Shown piece after piece: positions 1 to 6,799 of a stretch of DNA of 6,799 nucleotides. The notes under the pieces were generated by a model. It was not told the origin of the DNA. It saw only the letters and a program-made list of their open reading frames with translations, and ran no database searches. Position 1 is the stretch's first letter. Each line of letters opens with the position of its first letter. The DNA comes from a virus (taxonomy: Duplodnaviria > Heunggongvirae > Uroviricota > Caudoviricetes): IMG/VR virus record IMGVR_UViG_2547132252_000010, positions 1-6,799 of that record; one strand, 5' to 3'. The position numbers and the translations under genes are program-made.

Positions 1-34
1 CCCGGGTTTCCTGGAGAGTGTTTTATCTGTGAAC

Positions 35-924
35 TCAGGCTGCCAGATCATCGTTTCCGATGGAAGCATAATAAGCTTTTTCTGCTTCTGCCGGAGGAGT
101 ATGGCCCAGCCTTCCCAGCAATCGTCGATTGTTATACCAGTCCACCCACGTTAGTGTGGCCAGTTCCACTTCTGCACGGTTTTTCCAGCTCTTACGGTGT
201 ATTACCTCCGCTTTGTAAAGACCATTGATGCTCTCAGCCATCGCGTTGTCATACGAGTCGCCTGTACTCCCTGTTGATGCCAGTAATCCGGCTTCTTTTA
301 GTCGCTCCGTATAGGCCAGTGACACATACTGAGAGCCTTTATCGCTGTGATGGATGGTGCCAGACGGACGACGGGCCCACAACGCCTGCTCCAGCGCATC
401 CAGCACGAATGTCGTTTCCATAGACGATGAGACCCGCCACCCCACGATGTATCCGGCAAACACATCAATGATAAACGCCACATAGACGAAGCCCTGCCAT
501 GTGCTGACGTAAGTAAAATCAGCCACCCACAGCTGGTCAGGTCGTTCTGCCACGAACTGACGGTTTACGCGGTCGCCTGCGGCAACGGCTTTCCGGCTGA
601 TGGTCGTACGGACCTTTTTACCCCGGAGAACACCGGCAAGTCCCATAACCGCCATGAGACGTGCCACTGTACATCTGGCCACCTGATTCCTTCCCGTAAC
701 AACTGACGCCAGACTTTACGCACACCGTACACCTGATGATTTTCATCGTATACGCGCTGTATCTCTCTCTTCAGCCAGTCGTCGTGCTGCGCACGGGCAC
801 TGCGTTTATCCGGATGATGTCGCTGTTGCTGACAATGGTAATACGTTGACGGGGCAATATGCAGTTCGCTGCATACCGGTCCGACCCCGTACTGCTCACG
901 CAGCTTATCCAGCAGTGGCATCAT
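35..924 (-). pseudogene. IS3-family transposase OrfB (DDE integrase core), frame-disrupted: N-terminal part 565..924 and C-terminal DDE part 35..682 are in different frames
   Basis: IS3-family OrfB is normally one ORF of about 290-300 aa. Here the N-terminal segment ([16 protein letters not shown]...RQLLREGIR) and the DDE catalytic segment (VARCTVARLMAV...WVADFTY...HHSDKGSQY...ESINGLYKAEV...) sit in different frames and overlap across 565-682. The switch maps to about 682-683, where the minus strand reads atc agg tgg cc; one extra G (atc agg gtg gcc) would give the continuous REGIRVARCTV reading. Confidence 0.65.
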
Positions 925-1247
925 TTTTTCCAGAGGCGGTCGAACTCCGCCTTCGCAAAATAAGCGGAAGCCTGGCGAAGGATATCGTTACTGCGGCGCA
1001 GTTCACGATTTTCACGTTCCAGCTCTTTCAGACGCTGACGTTCAGCGCTGGTGAGCCCACCATCACCGCCCCCGGTATCCCGCTCATGCTGGCGAACCCA
1101 GACACGCAGAGTCTCCGGCGTACAGCCAATCTTTGGGGCAATGGAACAAATTGCCGCCCACTGTGAGTCATATTCATCCTGACTTTCCAGAACCATACGA
1201 ATCGCCCGCTGACGGACTTCGGGGGAAAAACGAGTATTTTTAGTCAT
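921..1247 (-). CDS. IS3-family transposase OrfA (HTH DNA-binding subunit), 108 aa
   Basis: [33 protein letters not shown]...[36 protein letters not shown] with an HTH followed by a leucine-zipper-like segment. Its stop overlaps the start of the orfB frame at a T6 run (plus-strand 924-929, A6 on the coding strand), the usual IS3-family -1 frameshift window. Confidence 0.9.
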
Positions 1248-1339
1248 CCTGTTTACCTCTTTCTCAGGGAGTTTAGTCTCCAGGATTTCCGGGGCGGTTC
1301 ACACCAAGTCTGGCCGCGAATTTCTTAGCATCACCAACC

Positions 1340-1467
1340 CTTAATGATTTAATAAACTCTTTTAATGTCATACCTTCCTCGGTTTAGTGTTTTTTGCGAG
1401 TTTAGTGTTTAATAAACCATTAAGTCAAGTATTTGCTTGTTTAGTGATTACTAAAGATAATTACCAC
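1340..1467 (+). promoter_or_regulatory. Candidate promoter-operator region of the TA operon: five direct repeats of TTTA(G/A)TG(A/T) with about 20-bp spacing, plus a sigma70-like -35/-10 pair placing the transcript start at or next to the ATG (leaderless)
   Basis: Repeat copies start near 1340, 1361, 1383, 1401 and 1440; longer forms are TTAATGATTTAATAAACT (1341-1358) and TTTAGTGTTTAATAAACC (1401-1418). TTGCTT at 1433-1438, a 17-bp spacer and GATAAT at 1456-1461 fit a promoter, and there is no Shine-Dalgarno before the ATG at 1468. Promoter and operator roles are inferred. Confidence 0.4.
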
Positions 1468-1838
1468 ATGCAAAAAAAGAAATTCGCCGTTTACGTCTCA
1501 AGGAGTGGTTTAAAGATAAAACTCTGCCACCCAAAGAGAAGAGCTACCTATCTCAACTAATGAGTGGGAGAGCCTCGTTTGGAGAAAAGGCTGCCAGAAG
1601 AATAGAGCAAACATACGGGATGCCGGAAGGGTATCTGGATGCGGAATACGCAGAACAACCGGGGGGTTCTCCACCACATGCAGGGTTAACGTCTAATCAA
1701 CTGGAATTATTGCAGATTTTTTCAGCCTTCCCTGAGGATGAGCAACGCCAGATAATCAGCGAGTTAAAGCAGAAAAAAGAATCAATGGAAGATCTCATAG
1801 CGAGATGGATTGCGGCGCAAAAATGCCGCCGCGCCTGA
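1468..1838 (+). CDS. paaR2: HTH transcriptional regulator of the TA operon (PaaR-like), reading frame offset at an A7 tract; the longest clean ORF is 1560..1838 (92 aa), but the HTH-encoding codons extend upstream to 1461 with no in-frame start
   Basis: Frame 0 from 1461 encodes LPHAKKEIRRLRLKEWFKDKTLPPKEKSYLSQLMSGRASFGEKAARRIEQTYGMPEGYLD..., a Cro/CI-type HTH, but has no ATG, GTG or TTG before M at 1560. The only upstream ATG (1468, atgcaaaaaaag) is in the +1 frame and stops after 30 codons at 1558-1560. One extra A in the A7 run 1472-1478 would give a continuous protein MQKKEIRRLRLKEWF... of about 123 aa. The symbol is by synteny with the recognised antitoxin and toxin genes. Confidence 0.55.
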
Positions 1839-1858
1839 GTTATAAAACCGGAGGAAAC

Positions 1859-2050
1859 ATGAATAGAGCCCTTTCACCAATGGTTTCTGAATTTGAAACC
1901 ATTGAACAAGAAAACAGTTACAACGAATGGCTGCGTGCGAAAGTAGCAACGAGCCTTGCAGATCCGCGCCCAGCAATTCCCCATGACGAAGTTGAGCGCA
2001 GAATGGCAGAACGCTTTGCTAAGATGCGCAAGGAACGGAGCAAGCAGTAA
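1859..2050 (+). CDS. paaA2: Small antitoxin of a ParE-type three-component TA system (PaaA2-like), 63 aa
   Basis: ATG at 1859 preceded by GGAGGA (1850-1855). The product MNRALSPMVSEFETIEQENSYNEWLRAKVATSLADPRPAIPHDEVERRMAERFAKMRKERSKQ is small, charged and helical, and matches my recollection of PaaA2. Its stop (2048-2050) lies 1 nt before the toxin ATG. Confidence 0.75.
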   Translation: MNRALSPMVSEFETIEQENSYNEWLRAKVATSLADPRPAIPHDEVERRMAERFAKMRKERSKQ

Positions 2051-2051
2051 A

Positions 2052-2330
2052 ATGTTACCCGTGTTATGGCTTGAAAGCGCAGATACCGACCTAGATGATA
2101 TAACTAGTTATATTGCTCGTTTCGACATAGATGCGGCTGAACGCTTATGGCAGCGATTAAGGGGTTGTGTGCTGCCGTTATCCGAACATCCGTATTTATA
2201 CCCACCAAGCGACAGAGTACCTGGCTTGCGTGAGATTGTAGCCCACCCTAACTATATAATTCTATACCGCGTAACAACATCAAGCGTTGAAGTAGTAAAC
2301 GTGATCCACGCAAGACGCCAGTTTCCCTAA
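2052..2330 (+). CDS. parE2: ParE/RelE-superfamily toxin (ParE2-like), 92 aa
   Basis: MLPVLWLESADTDLDDITSYIARFDIDAAERLWQRLRGCVLPLSEHPYLYPPSDRVPGLREIVAHPNYIILYRVTTSSVEVVNVIHARRQFP has the ParE-family pattern (D-x-x-I-x-x-YIA, RE-[IL]-V, YIILYRV). The start at 2052 is tightly coupled to the antitoxin stop; the in-frame ATG at 1956 would overlap paaA2 by 95 nt and is rejected. Confidence 0.85.
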   Translation: MLPVLWLESADTDLDDITSYIARFDIDAAERLWQRLRGCVLPLSEHPYLYPPSDRVPGLREIVAHPNYIILYRVTTSSVEVVNVIHARRQFP

Positions 2331-2350
2331 CTTTCACTACCAATAGAAAC

Positions 2351-2393
2351 ATAACAACCGCAACGACTTTATCAAAAGCGTTGTGTTTGTTAT
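2351..2393 (+). terminator. Candidate intrinsic terminator after the TA operon: 15-bp A/U-rich stem (one mismatch, one G-U) with a 13-nt loop and U-rich 3' arm
   Basis: ataacaaccgcaacg (2351-2365) pairs with cgttgtgtttgttat (2379-2393), starting 21 nt after the parE2 stop. The stem is atypically long and AT-rich, so the call is weak. Confidence 0.3.
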
Positions 2394-2400
2394 GTCCCGC

Positions 2401-2441
2401 GGTTTAGTTTTTACTTGGCTTAAGTTTAATGTTTATTAAAC
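2401..2441. repeat. Paralogous second copy of the operator-like block found upstream of the regulator
   Basis: GGTTTAGTTTTTACTTGGCTTAAGTTTAATGTTTATTAAAC (2401-2441) aligns with GGTTTAGTGTTTTTTGCGAGTTTAGTGTTTAATAAAC (1381-1417), sharing the GGTTTAGT head and the TTTA(A/G)TGTTTA(A/T)TAAAC core. Confidence 0.45.
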
Positions 2442-2680
2442 TAAAAATACCAACCACCCCGCCCCACAGAACGCAGGGAAATACTTCGAGTTACCCGGCA
2501 GTGGTCAGGGGTTAAGTAGCCAGCCCGAGGCGTATGAACATGACGGCAGGGTTCAACTTTAATAACTATGCAGCAGTTTTTTGTTCCGCTACCCCGGCGT
2601 TAAGGGGAAACAGAGGGTTTCTCAGTGGGCGAAGTCAAACATCAGAATGGAAGGCATCCCGGGATCGGCAAAGAAGCAGC

Positions 2681-2711
2681 AATGGCGCTTTATATTGACA
2701 TCAGCGCCATT
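2681..2711 (-). terminator. Possible terminator hairpin downstream of the minus-strand zinc-ribbon gene
   Basis: Perfect 9-bp inverted repeat AATGGCGCT (2681-2689) and AGCGCCATT (2703-2711) with a 13-nt loop, about 50 nt past the stop at 2760-2762. On the minus strand it is followed by GCUGCUUCUUUG, only moderately U-rich, and the loop is large. Confidence 0.2.
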
Positions 2712-2759
2712 GCAGGACAGGTAAGAGTTATCAGAGCGGTAACTAAGCGGTATGCGCCT

Positions 2760-2960
2760 TTACTTCAGAAAGTCTCTGGTGAGTGCACCGAAGATATTGT
2801 CAACGATTTCGTCATCGAACTGCGAGGACTCATCTTCAGTTACAAGGTGACCACAATTTTTGCAGATGGCTCCCGCGAAACTGTCAGAGCCCTGCGGCTT
2901 AAAGGATGTGTCAAAGACTTCGCCACCACATTCTGGGCAAGAAAACTTGATTGTATTCAT
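2760..2960 (-). CDS. Small C4 zinc-ribbon protein with acidic C-terminal tail, 66 aa
   Basis: The minus-strand ATG at 2960 is preceded by AGGA with an 8-nt spacer (gagAGGAaattggttATG). The product MNTIKFSCPECGGEVFDTSFKPQGSDSFAGAICKNCGHLVTEDESSQFDDEIVDNIFGALTRDFLK has C-P-E-C and C-K-N-C pairs about 21 residues apart, then an acidic tail. The overlapping plus-strand ORF 2625..2981 has no ribosome-binding site and is taken as antisense noise. Confidence 0.6.
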   Translation of the reverse strand: MNTIKFSCPECGGEVFDTSFKPQGSDSFAGAICKNCGHLVTEDESSQFDDEIVDNIFGALTRDFLK

Positions 2961-3052
2961 AACCAATTTCCTCTCGAGTAACAGACCCCTCAGAGGATAC
3001 CACCTCGCCTGACGTGGTTAAAAGCAGGCAACGCTAACCACAAGGAGCCGAC

Positions 3053-3271
3053 ATGCAGAAACGAGAACCCGTCATCATCGCGCCAGACTATACCGATGAT
3101 GAACTTTATGAGTGGATGCACCAGAAAATTAATGCAGCGCAGGATCTGAAATGGGCCAATGAAGCCAGGGCTAAGCAGGCTGAAAATCTGTCCGCTCTGG
3201 AGCAGGATATCACCAATCTGGAAAAAGCAGCGGCATTAAGCATTGCCAGAATGATTACATACCCGCGTTAA
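3053..3271 (+). CDS. Hypothetical small protein, 72 aa, predicted helical/coiled-coil
   Basis: ATG at 3053 is preceded by AAGGAG (3042-3047) with a 5-nt spacer. The product is MQKREPVIIAPDYTDDELYEWMHQKINAAQDLKWANEARAKQAENLSALEQDITNLEKAAALSIARMITYPR. It is divergent from the zinc-ribbon gene across a 92-bp intergenic region; no family recognised. Confidence 0.55.
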   Translation: MQKREPVIIAPDYTDDELYEWMHQKINAAQDLKWANEARAKQAENLSALEQDITNLEKAAALSIARMITYPR

Positions 3272-3627
3272 TAGCTAACCAACGAAGCTAAGGTTGGTAA
3301 TTAAGGAGTTCTCCACGGGTGAGGTGGAGTGCGTGCGCCGGACACGGGTGAGCATACGGCACTGACAGTTTACTGAAAGGATATTTCCCTGAAAAGTCAG
3401 ACCATAACGCGAAAGCGCACGGCGAGGTAGCTGGTTCATAGATAGCCTGTCGTTAAATTTTCGTCGACCGTGCGCTTCCGGTTGTGGCAATCCGCGAAAT
3501 GGCGCGGCGGTAAGTATGGAGGGGTTATTCCTTCCCCCGTTGAGGACACCGGGTTGTCAGGTTGACCATACGCTTAAGTGACAACCCCGCTGCAACGCCC
3601 TCTGTTATCAATTTTCTGGTGACGTTT

Positions 3628-3670
3628 GGCGGTATCAGTTTTACTCCGTGACTGCTCTGCCGCCCTTTTT
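3628..3670 (+). terminator. Candidate intrinsic terminator: GC-rich 7-bp basal stem (GGCGGUA/UGCCGCC) plus apical 4-bp stem, followed by CUUUUUAAA
   Basis: GGCGGTA (3628-3634) pairs with TGCCGCC (3658-3664), and CAGT (3636-3639) with ACTG (3651-3654); a T5 run follows at 3666-3670. It lies about 400 nt after the stop of the 72-aa gene and just before the 19-bp inverted repeat. Confidence 0.35.
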
Positions 3671-3674
3671 AAAG

Positions 3675-3822
3675 TGAATTTTGTGATGCGGTGAATGCGG
3701 CTGAGCGCACGCGGAACAGTTAAAACCAAAAACAGTGTTATGGGGGGATTCTCTGTATCCGGCGTTAATTGTTAACTGGTTAACGTCACCTGGAGGCACC
3801 AGGCACCGCATCACAAAATTCA
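3675..3822. repeat. 148-bp segment bounded by perfect 19-bp inverted repeats (TGAATTTTGTGATGCGGTG at 3675-3693; reverse complement at 3804-3822)
   Basis: Direct reading: the arms are exact reverse complements and the match stops at both boundaries. The 110-bp interior holds three GTTAA(C) repeats (3766-3784, including GTTAACTGGTTAAC at 3771-3784) and a tandem GGCACCAGGCACC (3795-3807). The right arm ends 17 nt before the ATG at 3840 and 5 nt before its GAGGA ribosome-binding site. Confidence 0.7.
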
Positions 3823-3839
3823 TTGTTGAGGACGCGATA

Positions 3840-4028
3840 ATGGAAACGTTATTACCAAACGTTAATACGTCTGAAGGTTGTTTTGAAATTGGTGTCACTA
3901 TCAGTAACCCTGTATTTACTGAAGATGCCATTAACAAGAGAAAACACGAACGGGAGCTATTAAATAAAATATGCATTCTTTCAATGCTGGCCCGTTTACG
4001 TCCGATACAAAAAGGATGCTGGCAATGA
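3840..4028 (+). CDS. Hypothetical small protein, 62 aa
   Basis: ATG at 3840 is preceded by GAGGA (3828-3832) with a 7-nt spacer. The product is METLLPNVNTSEGCFEIGVTISNPVFTEDAINKRKHERELLNKICILSMLARLRPIQKGCWQ. Its TGA stop (4026-4028) overlaps the next ATG (4025-4027) as ATGA, implying translational coupling. The longer track ORF from 3735 has no ribosome-binding site and would run through the inverted-repeat arm. Confidence 0.45.
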   Translation: METLLPNVNTSEGCFEIGVTISNPVFTEDAINKRKHERELLNKICILSMLARLRPIQKGCWQ

Positions 4029-4216
4029 ATACAGCATTTGCACTTGTTCTGACAGTTTTTCTTGTTTCCGGAGAGCCAGTTGATATTGCAGTCAGTGTTC
4101 ACAGGACAATGCAGGAGTGTGTGACTGCAGCAACCGAACAGAAAATTCCCGGTAACTGTTACCCGGTCGATAAAGTTATTCACCAGGATAATAACGAAAT
4201 CCCGGCAGGTCTTTAA
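4025..4216 (+). CDS. Hypothetical small membrane-associated protein, 63 aa, hydrophobic N-terminal segment
   Basis: ATG at 4025 is preceded by AAGGA with an 8-nt spacer (aaaAAGGAtgctggcaATG). The product MNTAFALVLTVFLVSGEPVDIAVSVHRTMQECVTAATEQKIPGNCYPVDKVIHQDNNEIPAGL has an uncharged hydrophobic stretch at residues 3-16 (one transmembrane helix or atypical signal) and two Cys. The alternative start at 3971 lacks a properly spaced Shine-Dalgarno. Confidence 0.45.
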   Translation: MNTAFALVLTVFLVSGEPVDIAVSVHRTMQECVTAATEQKIPGNCYPVDKVIHQDNNEIPAGL

Positions 4217-4308
4217 AACAGTTCCGTAATAAACATCCGATTTCATTCTTATATGCCAGCAATGGCAGGGATTTGTTCACCCTTAAATCTGTAATGAGGT
4301 AAAACAAA

Positions 4309-6780
4309 ATGAGTAAAGTCTTTATTTGCGCCGCCATTCCGGACGAACAGGCAATAAAGGAAGAAGGTGCCGTCGCTGTAGCCACTGCCATTGAAGCCGG
4401 TGATGAACGTCGCGCCCGCGCAAAATTTCACTGGCAATTCCTGGAACATTATCCGGCTGCTCAGGACTGCGCTTATAAATTTCTTGTTTGCGAGGATAAA
4501 CCCGGTATACCCCGCCCTGCCCTCGATTCCTGGGATGCTGAATATATGCAGGAAAACCGCTGGGATGAGGCGTCTGCTTCCTTTGTCCCGGTCGAGACTG
4601 AATCCGATCCGATGAACGTCACTTTTGACAACCTGGCCCCTGAAGTACAGAACGCTGTCATGGTTAAGTTCGACACATGTGAAAACATCACTGTTGATAT
4701 GGTGATTAGCGCACAGGAATTGTTGCAGGAAGACATGGCAACATTCGACGGCCATATCGTTGAAGCGTTGATGAAAATGCCAGAAGTTAACGCCATGTAT
4801 CCGGAGCTTAAGCTGCATGCCATCGGGTGGGTTAAGCATAAATGTAAGCCTGGTGCCAAATGGCCCGAAATTCAGGCAGAGATGCGCATCTGGAAAAAAC
4901 GTCGCGAAGGTGAACGCAAGGAAGCCGGAAAATACACGTCTGTTGTTGATCTCGCCCGCGCCAGAGCCAATCAACAGCACACTGAAAATTCAACAGGAAA
5001 AATCAACCCGGTCATTGCTGCCATTCATCGCGAATACAAGCAGACATGGAAAACACTGGATGACGAACTGGCCTACGCTCTCTGGCCTGGTGATGTGGAT
5101 GCCGGAAACATTGACGGCAGCATCCATCGCTGGGCAAAAAATGAAGTTATCGACAACGGCCGCGAAGACTGGAAGCGTATCTCGGCATCAATGCGCAAAC
5201 AGCCTGATGCCCTTCGCTACGACCGCCAGACTATTTTTGGCCTTGTCCGTGAACGTCCGATCGACATTCACAAAGACCCTGTGGCACTGAACAAATACAT
5301 TACTGAATACCTGACTACAAAGGGCGTGTTTGAAGATGAAGGAACAAATCAGAGCGCAACTGACACTCTCTCGTCGCCAGTACCAGAAACTGATGCAGTG
5401 GAAACGGCAATTCCGGACAACGAAAAAACCGAATGCAAAGTGGAAGTCGAACCATCTGTAGAGCGTGAGGGGCCGTTCTACTTCCTCTTCACCGACAAGG
5501 ATGGCGAAAAATACGGTCGCGCAAACAAACTTTCTGGTCTGGATAAGGCGCTGGCTGCCGGGGCTACTGAAATCACAAAAGAAGAATATTTTGCCCGAAA
5601 AAATGGCACATACACAGGCTTACCGCAAAATGCAAATACCGCACAAAATTCTGAACAACCAGAACCGGTAAAAGTTACCGCTGACGAAGTAAAGAAAATT
5701 ATGCAGGCAGCCAATATCAGCCAGCCTGACGCCAATCAGTTGCTCGCCGCATCACGTGGTGAATTTGTTGCAGGGATTAGCGACCCGAATGATCCGAAAT
5801 GGGTGAAGGGGATTGAAACCCGCGATTCTGTGAACCAGAACCAGCAAGAAACGGAACAGAACGACCAGAAAGCGGAACAAAACAGCCCAAATACGCAACA
5901 AAACGAGCCAGAAACGAAACAACCTGAGCCAGTAGCGCAACAGGAACCGGAAAAAGTCTGCACCGCCTGCGGTCAGACCGGCGGCGGCAACTGCCCTGAT
6001 TGTGGCGCGGTGATGGGCGACGCAACATACCAGGAAACATTCGATGAAGAGTATCAGGTTGAAGTTCAGGAAGATGATCCGGAGGAAATGGAAGGCGCTG
6101 AACATCCACACAAGGAGAACACTGACGGCAATCAGCATCACGATAGCGATAATGAAACTGGCGAGACGGCAGATCACTCAATTAAGGTGAACGGTCATCA
6201 AGAAATCACATCCACCAGCAGGACGTGTGACCATCTAATGATCGACCTTGAAACCATGGGAAAAAATCCTGATGCCCCGATCATCTCAATAGGTGCAATA
6301 TTTTTCGATCCGCAAACCGGAGATATGGGACCGGAATTTAGTAAGACTATCGATCTGGAAACTGCTGGCGGGGTCATTGATCGGGACACCATTAAATGGT
6401 GGCTTAAGCAATCACGCGAAGCGCAATCTGCCATTATGACCGATGAAATCCCGTTAGATGATGCACTATTACAATTGCGGGAATTTATCGACGAAAACTC
6501 CGGTGAATTTTTTGTTCAGGTCTGGGGAAATGGAGCCAACTTCGACAACACGATTTTGCGCCGTTCATACGAACGGCAGGGGATCCCCTGCCCGTGGCGT
6601 TACTACAACGATCGCGATGTACGCACAATCGTTGAGCTGGGGAAAGCCATAGACTTCGATGCCAGAACGGCTATTCCATTCGAAGGTGAGCGCCATAATG
6701 CACTTGATGACGCCCGTTACCAGGCAAAATACGTTTCAGTTATCTGGCAAAAACTGATCCCGAATCAGGCTGATTTTTAA
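4309..6780 (+). CDS. Prophage recombination-type exonuclease, 823 aa: long N-terminal and linker region (RecE-like by recollection) with an internal C4 zinc ribbon, fused to a C-terminal DEDDh (DnaQ/ExoX-like) 3'-5' exonuclease domain
   Basis: ATG at 4309 is preceded by GAGGT with an 8-nt spacer. The C-terminal domain (from about M644, nt 6238) carries the three DEDDh motifs: Exo I MIDLETMG (D-x-E), Exo II WGNGANFD, Exo III HNALDDARYQAKY (H-x4-D). Upstream are a C-x2-C-x21-C-x2-C zinc ribbon (codons 551-565, nt 5959-6003) and an acidic Q/N/E/P-rich low-complexity linker. The middle region (LLAASRGEFVAGISDPNDPKWVKGI...CTACGQTGGGNCPDCGAVMGDATYQETFDEE) matches my memory of central RecE; this is unverified. 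Confidence 0.9.
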   Translation: MSKVFICAAIPDEQAIKEEGAVAVATAIEAGDERRARAKFHWQFLEHYPAAQDCAYKFLVCEDKPGIPRPALDSWDAEYMQENRWDEASASFVPVETESDPMNVTFDNLAPEVQNAVMVKFDTCENITVDMVISAQELLQEDMATFDGHIVEALMKMPEVNAMYPELKLHAIGWVKHKCKPGAKWPEIQAEMRIWKKRREGERKEAGKYTSVVDLARARANQQHTENSTGKINPVIAAIHREYKQTWKTLDDELAYALWPGDVDAGNIDGSIHRWAKNEVIDNGREDWKRISASMRKQPDALRYDRQTIFGLVRERPIDIHKDPVALNKYITEYLTTKGVFEDEGTNQSATDTLSSPVPETDAVETAIPDNEKTECKVEVEPSVEREGPFYFLFTDKDGEKYGRANKLSGLDKALAAGATEITKEEYFARKNGTYTGLPQNANTAQNSEQPEPVKVTADEVKKIMQAANISQPDANQLLAASRGEFVAGISDPNDPKWVKGIETRDSVNQNQQETEQNDQKAEQNSPNTQQNEPETKQPEPVAQQEPEKVCTACGQTGGGNCPDCGAVMGDATYQETFDEEYQVEVQEDDPEEMEGAEHPHKENTDGNQHHDSDNETGETADHSIKVNGHQEITSTSRTCDHLMIDLETMGKNPDAPIISIGAIFFDPQTGDMGPEFSKTIDLETAGGVIDRDTIKWWLKQSREAQSAIMTDEIPLDDALLQLREFIDENSGEFFVQVWGNGANFDNTILRRSYERQGIPCPWRYYNDRDVRTIVELGKAIDFDARTAIPFEGERHNALDDARYQAKYVSVIWQKLIPNQADF

Positions 6781-6799
6781 TGTTCAACCCCGGTCGTTG
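6780..6799 (+). CDS. 5' end of the next gene (MFNPGR...), start overlapping the exonuclease stop in TAATG; truncated by the window end
   Basis: ATG at 6780-6782 overlaps TAA at 6778-6780, a typical coupled arrangement. Only 6 codons are visible, so this is based on position alone. Confidence 0.25.

Follow-up and report, generated by a model that had tools for sequence, protein, structure and literature searches.

We analysed a stretch of 6,799 nucleotides from a Caudoviricetes virus (IMG/VR record IMGVR_UViG_2547132252_000010, positions 1 to 6,799), the whole of which is referred to below as the window. It contains an open reading frame (ORF) that starts with ATG and encodes a protein of 823 amino acids (aa), in which a region resembling RecE of the Rac prophage is followed by a domain of the DEDDh exonuclease type at the place where RecE has its own nuclease (Table 1). 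PHROG 2082 matches this protein from end to end. RefSeq and NCBI name it "exonuclease", many copies carrying the name "3'-5' exoribonuclease", and one 90%-identity cluster alone holds 23,183 member sequences.

Residues 1-256 of the product are 96% identical to the ydfE product of the Qin prophage of Escherichia coli K-12 (pseudogene b1577), where IS2 interrupts the gene after codon 256, and the operon order ydfC, dicF, dicB, ydfD, ydfE is the same in Qin and in the window. The ORF is therefore an intact form of K-12 ydfE; in lambdoid prophages of the Qin/mEp460 type this gene is promoter-distal within an early-left operon that is under repressor control. The IS2-cut K-12 copy, by contrast, is without the RecE-like middle, the linker and the nuclease. 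Consistent with this assignment, the Pfam domains YdfE_N (PF27430), YdfE_C (PF27432) and Rv2179c-like are listed for near-identical proteins, the two YdfE assignments being taken from precomputed Pfam annotation of homologues that are 89-97% identical. We found no sigma-70-like promoter on the plus strand between positions 3200 and 6799, which fits co-transcription of the exonuclease gene with the rest of the operon. In relatives, the genes xis and int and the attachment site come next after the exonuclease gene, which is also found in plaque-forming phages.

Table 1. Coordinates of features in the window: parts of the 823-aa protein and its gene, followed by neighbouring features
Feature	Position	Strand	Basis or remark
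Intact ydfE-type "exonuclease", full ORF	4309-6780	+	Last gene before xis/int, early-left operon
YdfE-type N-terminal module, aa 1-261	4309-5091	+	Not RecE-like
Middle region common with RecE 278-440, aa 262-451	5092-5661	+	BLASTP, model
"GPFY...RANK...EIxxEEYxARK" mini-domain, aa 385-432	5461-5604	+	Alignment; model confidence about 95
Sole block of DNA-level recE homology, 78% identity	5740-6175	+	DNA comparison
GISDPNDPKW motif, aa 489-498	5773-5802	+
C4 zinc ribbon CTACGQTGGGNCPDC, aa 551-565, C-x2-C-x8-C-x2-C	5959-6003	+
Swap junction	6181-6231	+	Last RecE-like residue I625; DEDDh domain starts at aa 642
Chi octamer GCTGGTGG in the swap junction	6212-6219	-
DEDDh 3'-5' exonuclease domain, Rv2179c/DexA/EcD type, aa 642-813	6232-6747	+	Pfam, alignments
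Codon of catalytic D646	6244-6246
Codon of catalytic E648	6250-6252
Codon of catalytic D746	6544-6546
Codon of catalytic H796	6694-6696
Codon of catalytic D801	6709-6711
ydfC	3053-3271		Qin gene order
DicF small RNA	3614-3665	+	Rfam, 76.7 bits
dicB	3837-4025	+	Annotation of collinear loci
ydfD	4022-4216	+	Annotation of collinear loci
IS3-family insertion sequence	35-1247	-	orfA 921-1247, orfB about 35-924
ALIL frameshift pseudoknot of the IS3-family element	850-966		Rfam, 121.5 bits
ORF resembling a remnant of a longer gene	1560-1838		Longer gene at L001 5158-5529
Small antitoxin-like ORF and RelE/ParE-family toxin gene	1858-2329	+	Annotation of collinear L001
ECs_2282-type putative zinc-binding protein	2760-2960	-	Annotation of collinear L001

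A RecE-like region followed by a DEDDh domain

The initial annotation, made from the letters of the window, had described this gene as a chimera in which a RecE scaffold carries a DEDDh exonuclease. The catalytic end of that description is borne out by profile searches: PF16473 (Rv2179c-like 3'-5' exoribonuclease domain) matches the C-terminal domain with 226.6 bits against a cut-off of 27 (E=2.3e-67) and spans profile positions 2-177 of 177, while the RNase_T profile gives a weak match under its cut-off (E=4e-4). All elements of the DEDDh layout that had been noticed in the last 180 residues are present, namely D-x-E (Exo I), D (Exo II) and H-x4-D (Exo III). The only solved structure reached by sequence is DexA of phage T4 (PDB 8KEL, E=1.5e-6), and the set D646, E648, D746, H796 and D801 aligns with DexA residues D7, E9, D119, H186 and D191. 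These residues are retained in all full-length DEDDh-type relatives, including the one from Kluyvera. Judging by its family, the domain is predicted to act in the 3'-5' direction, opposite to the 5'-3' polarity of the RecE nuclease; enzymes of the ExoX, ExoI and DnaQ family share the DEDDh chemistry, for which 3'-5' action on DNA ends would be expected, but they are host enzymes without a platform domain and are not genes of a phage operon.

Similarity to RecE is confined to the central part of the protein. A BLASTP comparison with K-12 RecE (b1350, NC_000913) aligned aa 262-625 with RecE 278-591 at 39% identity (E=4e-61), rising to about 80% over aa 475-625, the zinc ribbon included. At the DNA level, the single block of recE homology comprises the GISDPNDPKW motif, a Q-, E- and P-rich linker, and the ribbon. 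The resemblance of the central region to RecE that the initial annotation had proposed is thus real, whereas its extension to the whole of residues 1-640 stands for aa 262-625 and fails for aa 1-261. The latter are of YdfE type and show no similarity to RecE 1-277 by BLASTP, a profile-profile comparison not having been run, and no Pfam match to Exonuc_VIII (PF06630), the RecE-type N-terminus, was found anywhere in the 823-aa protein. The NCBIfam model for exonuclease VIII (NF007259) scores 277.3 bits against an equivalog cut-off of 1269, and it matches nothing beyond aa 452-625 and a single additional stretch.

An AlphaFold model of aa 1-470, built with 27 diverse relatives, has a mean predicted local distance difference test (pLDDT) score of 84 (the model confidence of Table 1) and contains four well-defined folded parts: an alpha/beta fold (aa 1-95), two helical domains (aa 100-205 and aa 245-340) and, after a disordered segment (aa 345-382), a small domain made of a beta-hairpin and a helix (aa 385-432). 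The second helical domain begins within the YdfE-type module and opens the part shared with RecE. The small domain is the "GPFY...RANK" mini-domain, which is conserved in many relatives and corresponds to a gap in K-12 RecE.

At protein level, similarity to RecE ends after "...ETGETADHSI", where I625 corresponds to RecE residue 591. Past this point RecE enters its nuclease and the window protein enters the DEDDh domain; the PD-(D/E)XK nuclease (RecE 606-866; DUF3799) gave no Pfam hit and no BLAST match in the 823-aa protein. A RecE fragment starting at residue 588 (RecE588) suffices for function (PMC3945230), while residues 564-866 are stated in a review to form the nuclease domain (PMC11611040); the break at about RecE 591 coincides with the N-terminal edge of the fragments sufficient for RecE function. 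The two proteins are further alike in that both are encoded towards the end of a lambdoid prophage's early-left operon. They differ in that the window protein is without the RecE nuclease and without recT downstream.

The swap junction also contains a Chi octamer, which is retained in 78 of 80 DEDDh-type loci (L035-L114) and lies on the phage genome's "active" strand, whereas K-12 recE has no Chi site. Its presence may be fortuitous, or the octamer may have to do with the origin of the swap or mark the site of exchange.

A modular family

Direct homologue searches gave nothing beyond near-identical E. coli proteins and fragments; diversity came from a search with aa 1-640 against 1.84 billion representative proteins (50%-identity representatives), which yielded 251 relatives. 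Domains were mapped by local BLAST in the 48 of these that are at least 480 aa long. The mapped relatives combine two alternative N-termini, of YdfE type and of RecE type, with a shared middle and at least three types of C-terminus. We refer to the part preceding the C-terminal domain as the platform.

The first type of C-terminus is the DEDDh domain, found for example in P0245 and in P0364 from Kluyvera. P0245 (805 aa) is a sister allele in which the RecE N-terminus, matched by Exonuc_VIII and 99% identical, is followed by the DEDDh domain of the window at 98% identity; because it joins RecE's own N-terminus to DEDDh, the swap is literal, and the earlier proposal that a DEDDh domain stands in place of the RecE nuclease is supported. 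The second type is the PD-(D/E)XK nuclease of RecE (DUF3799), which in P0259 follows a YdfE-type middle. The third is a domain of about 180 aa with the invariant motif "KKSLTDAxKKALSxLGFxAD". It has no Pfam hit at E<=1e-3, the profile Rad52_Rad22 matching the motif weakly (E=0.026), and it was modelled with a pLDDT of 80.5; Foldseek and a hidden Markov model search of PDB sequences returned no similarity to Rad52. We consider this domain a probable Rad52-family annealase. Proteins that join it to the platform occur in Enterobacter and Yersinia, where NCBI and PHROGs label them "exodeoxyribonuclease VIII" or "exonuclease", and the gene next to them is a homologue of Sipho_Gp157.

At least one further C-terminus, a fourth, was seen in P0243 of Enterobacter roggenkampii (702 aa); it is about 200 aa long, and Pfam profiles do not hit it even when matches up to E<=10 are admitted.

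The elements of the linker, namely the mini-domain, the GISDPxDPKW motif, a G-x-FS[IV][DE]GL motif and the C4 ribbon, shuffle independently among relatives. The same ribbon is present in RecE and in seven of the 48 long relatives, and the G-x-FS[IV][DE]GL motif is absent from the window protein. These elements look like short interaction motifs. Since one platform bears several effectors, the RecE/YdfE platform is, to judge by the domains that it is joined to, a carrier for interchangeable effector domains of DNA recombination.

Prevalence, selection and neighbouring genes

DNA encoding the DEDDh domain was detected in 4093 of 5426 complete E. coli genomes (about 75%), at 8163 places and in up to seven places per genome. 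DNA of the Rac RecE nuclease domain was detected in 1736 of the same genomes (32%), at 1827 places. In E. coli, the DEDDh chimera is thus the common form and the textbook RecE the minority form.

In principle, such a gene might be a decaying relic or an accidental chimera without function. In K-12 the gene is a pseudogene that IS2 interrupts, and in some strains it contains insertion sequences (IS) or internal deletions. Most copies are nevertheless full length (exactly 823 codons in 42 of 80 loci, and 811-831 in most others), the gene is present in plaque-forming phages and the catalytic residues are kept even in Kluyvera. Among 35 distinct 823-codon alleles, the ratio of nonsynonymous to synonymous substitution (dN/dS) is 0.15 for the N-terminus, 0.28 for the middle, 0.29 for the linker and 0.13 for the DEDDh domain, and hence all parts of the protein are under purifying selection. 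We therefore give almost no credence to loss of function as a general explanation. Synonymous divergence in these alleles is 0.026 in the DEDDh segment (6229-6780), about five times below the values for the N-terminal part (0.144) and the middle (0.143), at 4309-5661. This suggests recent spread, or homogenisation, of the 3' end of the gene along with xis and int.

The initial annotation had also named the overlapping downstream gene as the probable annealase partner, which would make the window protein the exonuclease half of a two-component recombinase. The gene indeed holds the position that exo/bet or recE/recT have in other lambdoid phages, and its stop codon is overlapped by an ATG. This ATG, however, opens an unannotated ORF of 46 codons in full-length relatives, and the next annotated gene, 64 nucleotides downstream, is the excisionase gene xis, followed by int. 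We examined 80 viral-contig loci with the DEDDh domain and their flanks within 6 kb; 60 of them have the YdfE-type N-terminal or middle part and 20, by tblastn, the RecE-type N-terminus. No RecT, Rad52-like domain or RecE nuclease was found within 6 kb of any of the 80, Red-beta and Erf sequences not having been searched for, and a recognisable xis and then int follow the exonuclease gene in 58. A Rac-like prophage with the RecE-N/DEDDh allele has the order sieB, kilR, ydaE, exonuclease, xis-like gene, int, with no recT. Neither an annealase nor Gam is annotated in the complete genomes of Tritos and HannyBb, and when ten Tritos proteins, among them most of the unassigned ones, were scanned with Pfam, none was recognised. 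With no annealase at these loci, the enzyme is not part of an exonuclease-annealase pair; the downstream gene was rejected as a candidate partner, and a recombinase of this two-gene kind appears highly improbable.

Possible roles of the chimera

A survey of 325 lambdoid phages (Zheng et al. 2025, PMC12315714) describes a class of phages that have no recombination module and no RecBCD inhibitor, carry many Chi sites (at least eight on the active strand being the class criterion) and rely on host RecBCD. It also reports DnaQ-like 3'-5' nuclease genes in early-left operons, usually adjoining int, and "RecE-2" proteins, relatives of RecE without the nuclease domain, which like the DnaQ-like genes were left out of the analysis; the text available is silent on the fusion with the RecE platform, on where exactly the swap falls and on the Rad52-fold ends. 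The Chi counts on the top and bottom strands are 9 and 2 in Tritos, where about 1.3 are expected from composition, 12 and 3 in Evi, and 5 and 2 in HannyBb; Tritos and Evi reach the survey's Chi threshold for the class, and HannyBb, with five active-strand sites, stays below it.

RecBCD requires nearly blunt ends. Because the phages that carry the gene are without an annealase and a RecBCD inhibitor and are rich in Chi, the trimming of 3' tails would be the most plausible job for the enzyme. Our preferred reading, to which we give about even chances, is that it is a 3'-end-trimming DNA exonuclease of lytic growth in Chi-rich phages without a recombination module. The platform, consisting of folded N-terminal domains and a long acidic linker with short motifs and a zinc ribbon, bears the DEDDh domain in the same way as it bears, in sister proteins, the RecE 5'-3' nuclease (then followed by recT) or the probable Rad52-fold annealase. 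During lytic growth the enzyme would take nucleotides off the 3' ends of phage or host DNA, working alone or with host functions rather than as one half of an exonuclease-annealase pair. Once 3' tails are trimmed, RecBCD could load, or RecBCD and RecA could process the phage DNA ends; alternatively, the exposed 5' tails might anneal.

Several observations weigh against this reading. The best Pfam match is named for an exoribonuclease, so that the substrate may be RNA. In the lambdoid survey (PMC12315714), E. coli 3'-5' DNA exonucleases are said generally to reduce recombination, and DnaQ-type genes adjoining int are not counted as recombination-module genes. Structural comparison of the N-terminal platform gave no informative match. 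Finally, EcD, which among tested relatives comes closest to the catalytic domain, is reported as a nuclease of anti-T4 defence (PMC12153337).

The last of these points calls for a closer comparison with DexA and EcD. Kang et al. 2025 (PMC12153337) solved the structure of DexA and described the E. coli homologue EcD ("HREX"), which cuts T4 DNA and leaves unmodified DNA uncut, and which protects cells from T4. Both belong to the same DEDDh subfamily as the window domain and have identical catalytic residues; they are stand-alone proteins of about 190-230 aa, whereas the window domain forms the C-terminal end of a protein of 823 aa. DexA is about 28-31% identical to the window domain. As a proxy for EcD, and not EcD itself, we used a 189-aa viral-contig protein that matches the published forward primer, has residue A78 and has a similar C-terminus; its identity with the window domain is 37.7% (E=2e-37). 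In a tentative alignment of the three sequences, W152 of DexA, one of two residues implicated in recognition of 5-hydroxymethylcytosine (5hmC; PMC12153337), is replaced by Tyr in the window domain, D169 sits in an insertion that the window domain is missing, and the tetramer residue D90, which is lost in EcD, is retained as D717.

The stand-alone EcD-like gene is located at L028 (6401-6991, minus strand), in a P2-like early operon with cox, DUF4761, a Dam methylase gene and DUF4406. With such a location, the published "bacterial" defence exonuclease is itself probably prophage-encoded.

These relationships raise the possibility that the window protein is a nuclease of defence or superinfection exclusion, acting like EcD on incoming phage DNA such as 5hmC-modified T-even DNA, or like TONDO on the genomes of RNA phages, with the platform as an auxiliary domain. 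DexA is the sole PDB sequence match, EcD expressed from a plasmid protected against T4, and ISG20-like bacterial DEDDh enzymes (TONDO), found in prophages and plasmids with auxiliary domains, block MS2 and Qbeta (2026 preprint). An intact gene under purifying selection, present in about three quarters of E. coli genomes and often in several copies, would also fit a benefit to the host. Against this stand the tentative differences at W152 and D169 and the retained D90, and a PADLOC search that returned nothing significant (best E=0.023). Moreover, the gene is distal in a lytic operon under repressor control and has no promoter-like site of its own. The protein would thus not be expected in an ordinary lysogen, and the platform is otherwise joined to recombination enzymes. 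A defence function is the main rival of our reading, though a less likely one.

A different substrate would apply if the protein were a 3'-5' exoribonuclease of lytic growth, maturing or turning over, for example, transcripts of its own operon (the DicF precursor being one) or breaking down RNAs of the host. The transcript from which DicF is processed is also that of the exonuclease gene, and both the best-matching profile and the NCBI name of many copies point to an exoribonuclease. Yet the two closest tested members of the family, DexA and EcD, act on DNA, the platform is common to DNA nucleases and an annealase, and the sequence itself does not tell RNA from DNA as the substrate. Taken together, these points make an RNA-directed function improbable, and trimming of DNA 3' ends remains our preferred reading.

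A broader proposal, which we put forward tentatively and think rather unlikely, is that the RecE/YdfE N-terminal region would be a general adaptor of enterobacterial lambdoid phages, bringing nucleases of 5'-3' or 3'-5' polarity or a Rad52-type annealase, as interchangeable effectors, to phage DNA ends. The DEDDh version would then be the missing accessory factor of Chi-rich phages without a recombination module, trimming 3' tails for host RecBCD. If so, the proteins that now go under "exodeoxyribonuclease VIII" or "RecE-2 without nuclease" would be fusions of the platform to an annealase.

Part of this picture is already known: databases hold the gene in large numbers under the name of an exonuclease, genes of DnaQ type close to int are in print and the catalytic subfamily includes characterised members. 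In the literature searched on Rv2179c and phage and on ydfE we found no functional study of the window protein, nor, in the literature searched overall, its connection with the RecE platform, the precise position of the swap, the fusions of platform and annealase or the finding that DEDDh outnumbers RecE. The first 560-600 residues or so of RecE are termed a domain of unknown function, known only for the improved linear-linear recombineering obtained with full-length RecE (2023 review, PMC11611040). Occurrence of the same platform on three DNA-recombination effectors offers a concrete handle on what it does, as well as a testable candidate function for lambdoid phages relying on RecBCD of the host and on Chi; the Rad52-fold fusions now labelled "exonuclease VIII" are probable misannotations.

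The remaining features lie in the left part of the window. Toxin-antitoxin-like genes and a gene for a putative zinc-binding protein were assigned from the annotation of the collinear locus L001, which also has the longer gene of which the ORF at 1560-1838 looks like a remnant. The IS3-family element, with its frameshift pseudoknot, occupies the site that immunity-region genes have in collinear prophages. In some strains an IS3-like element of the IS1203 family, with the same annotated pseudoknot, lies inside the exonuclease gene.

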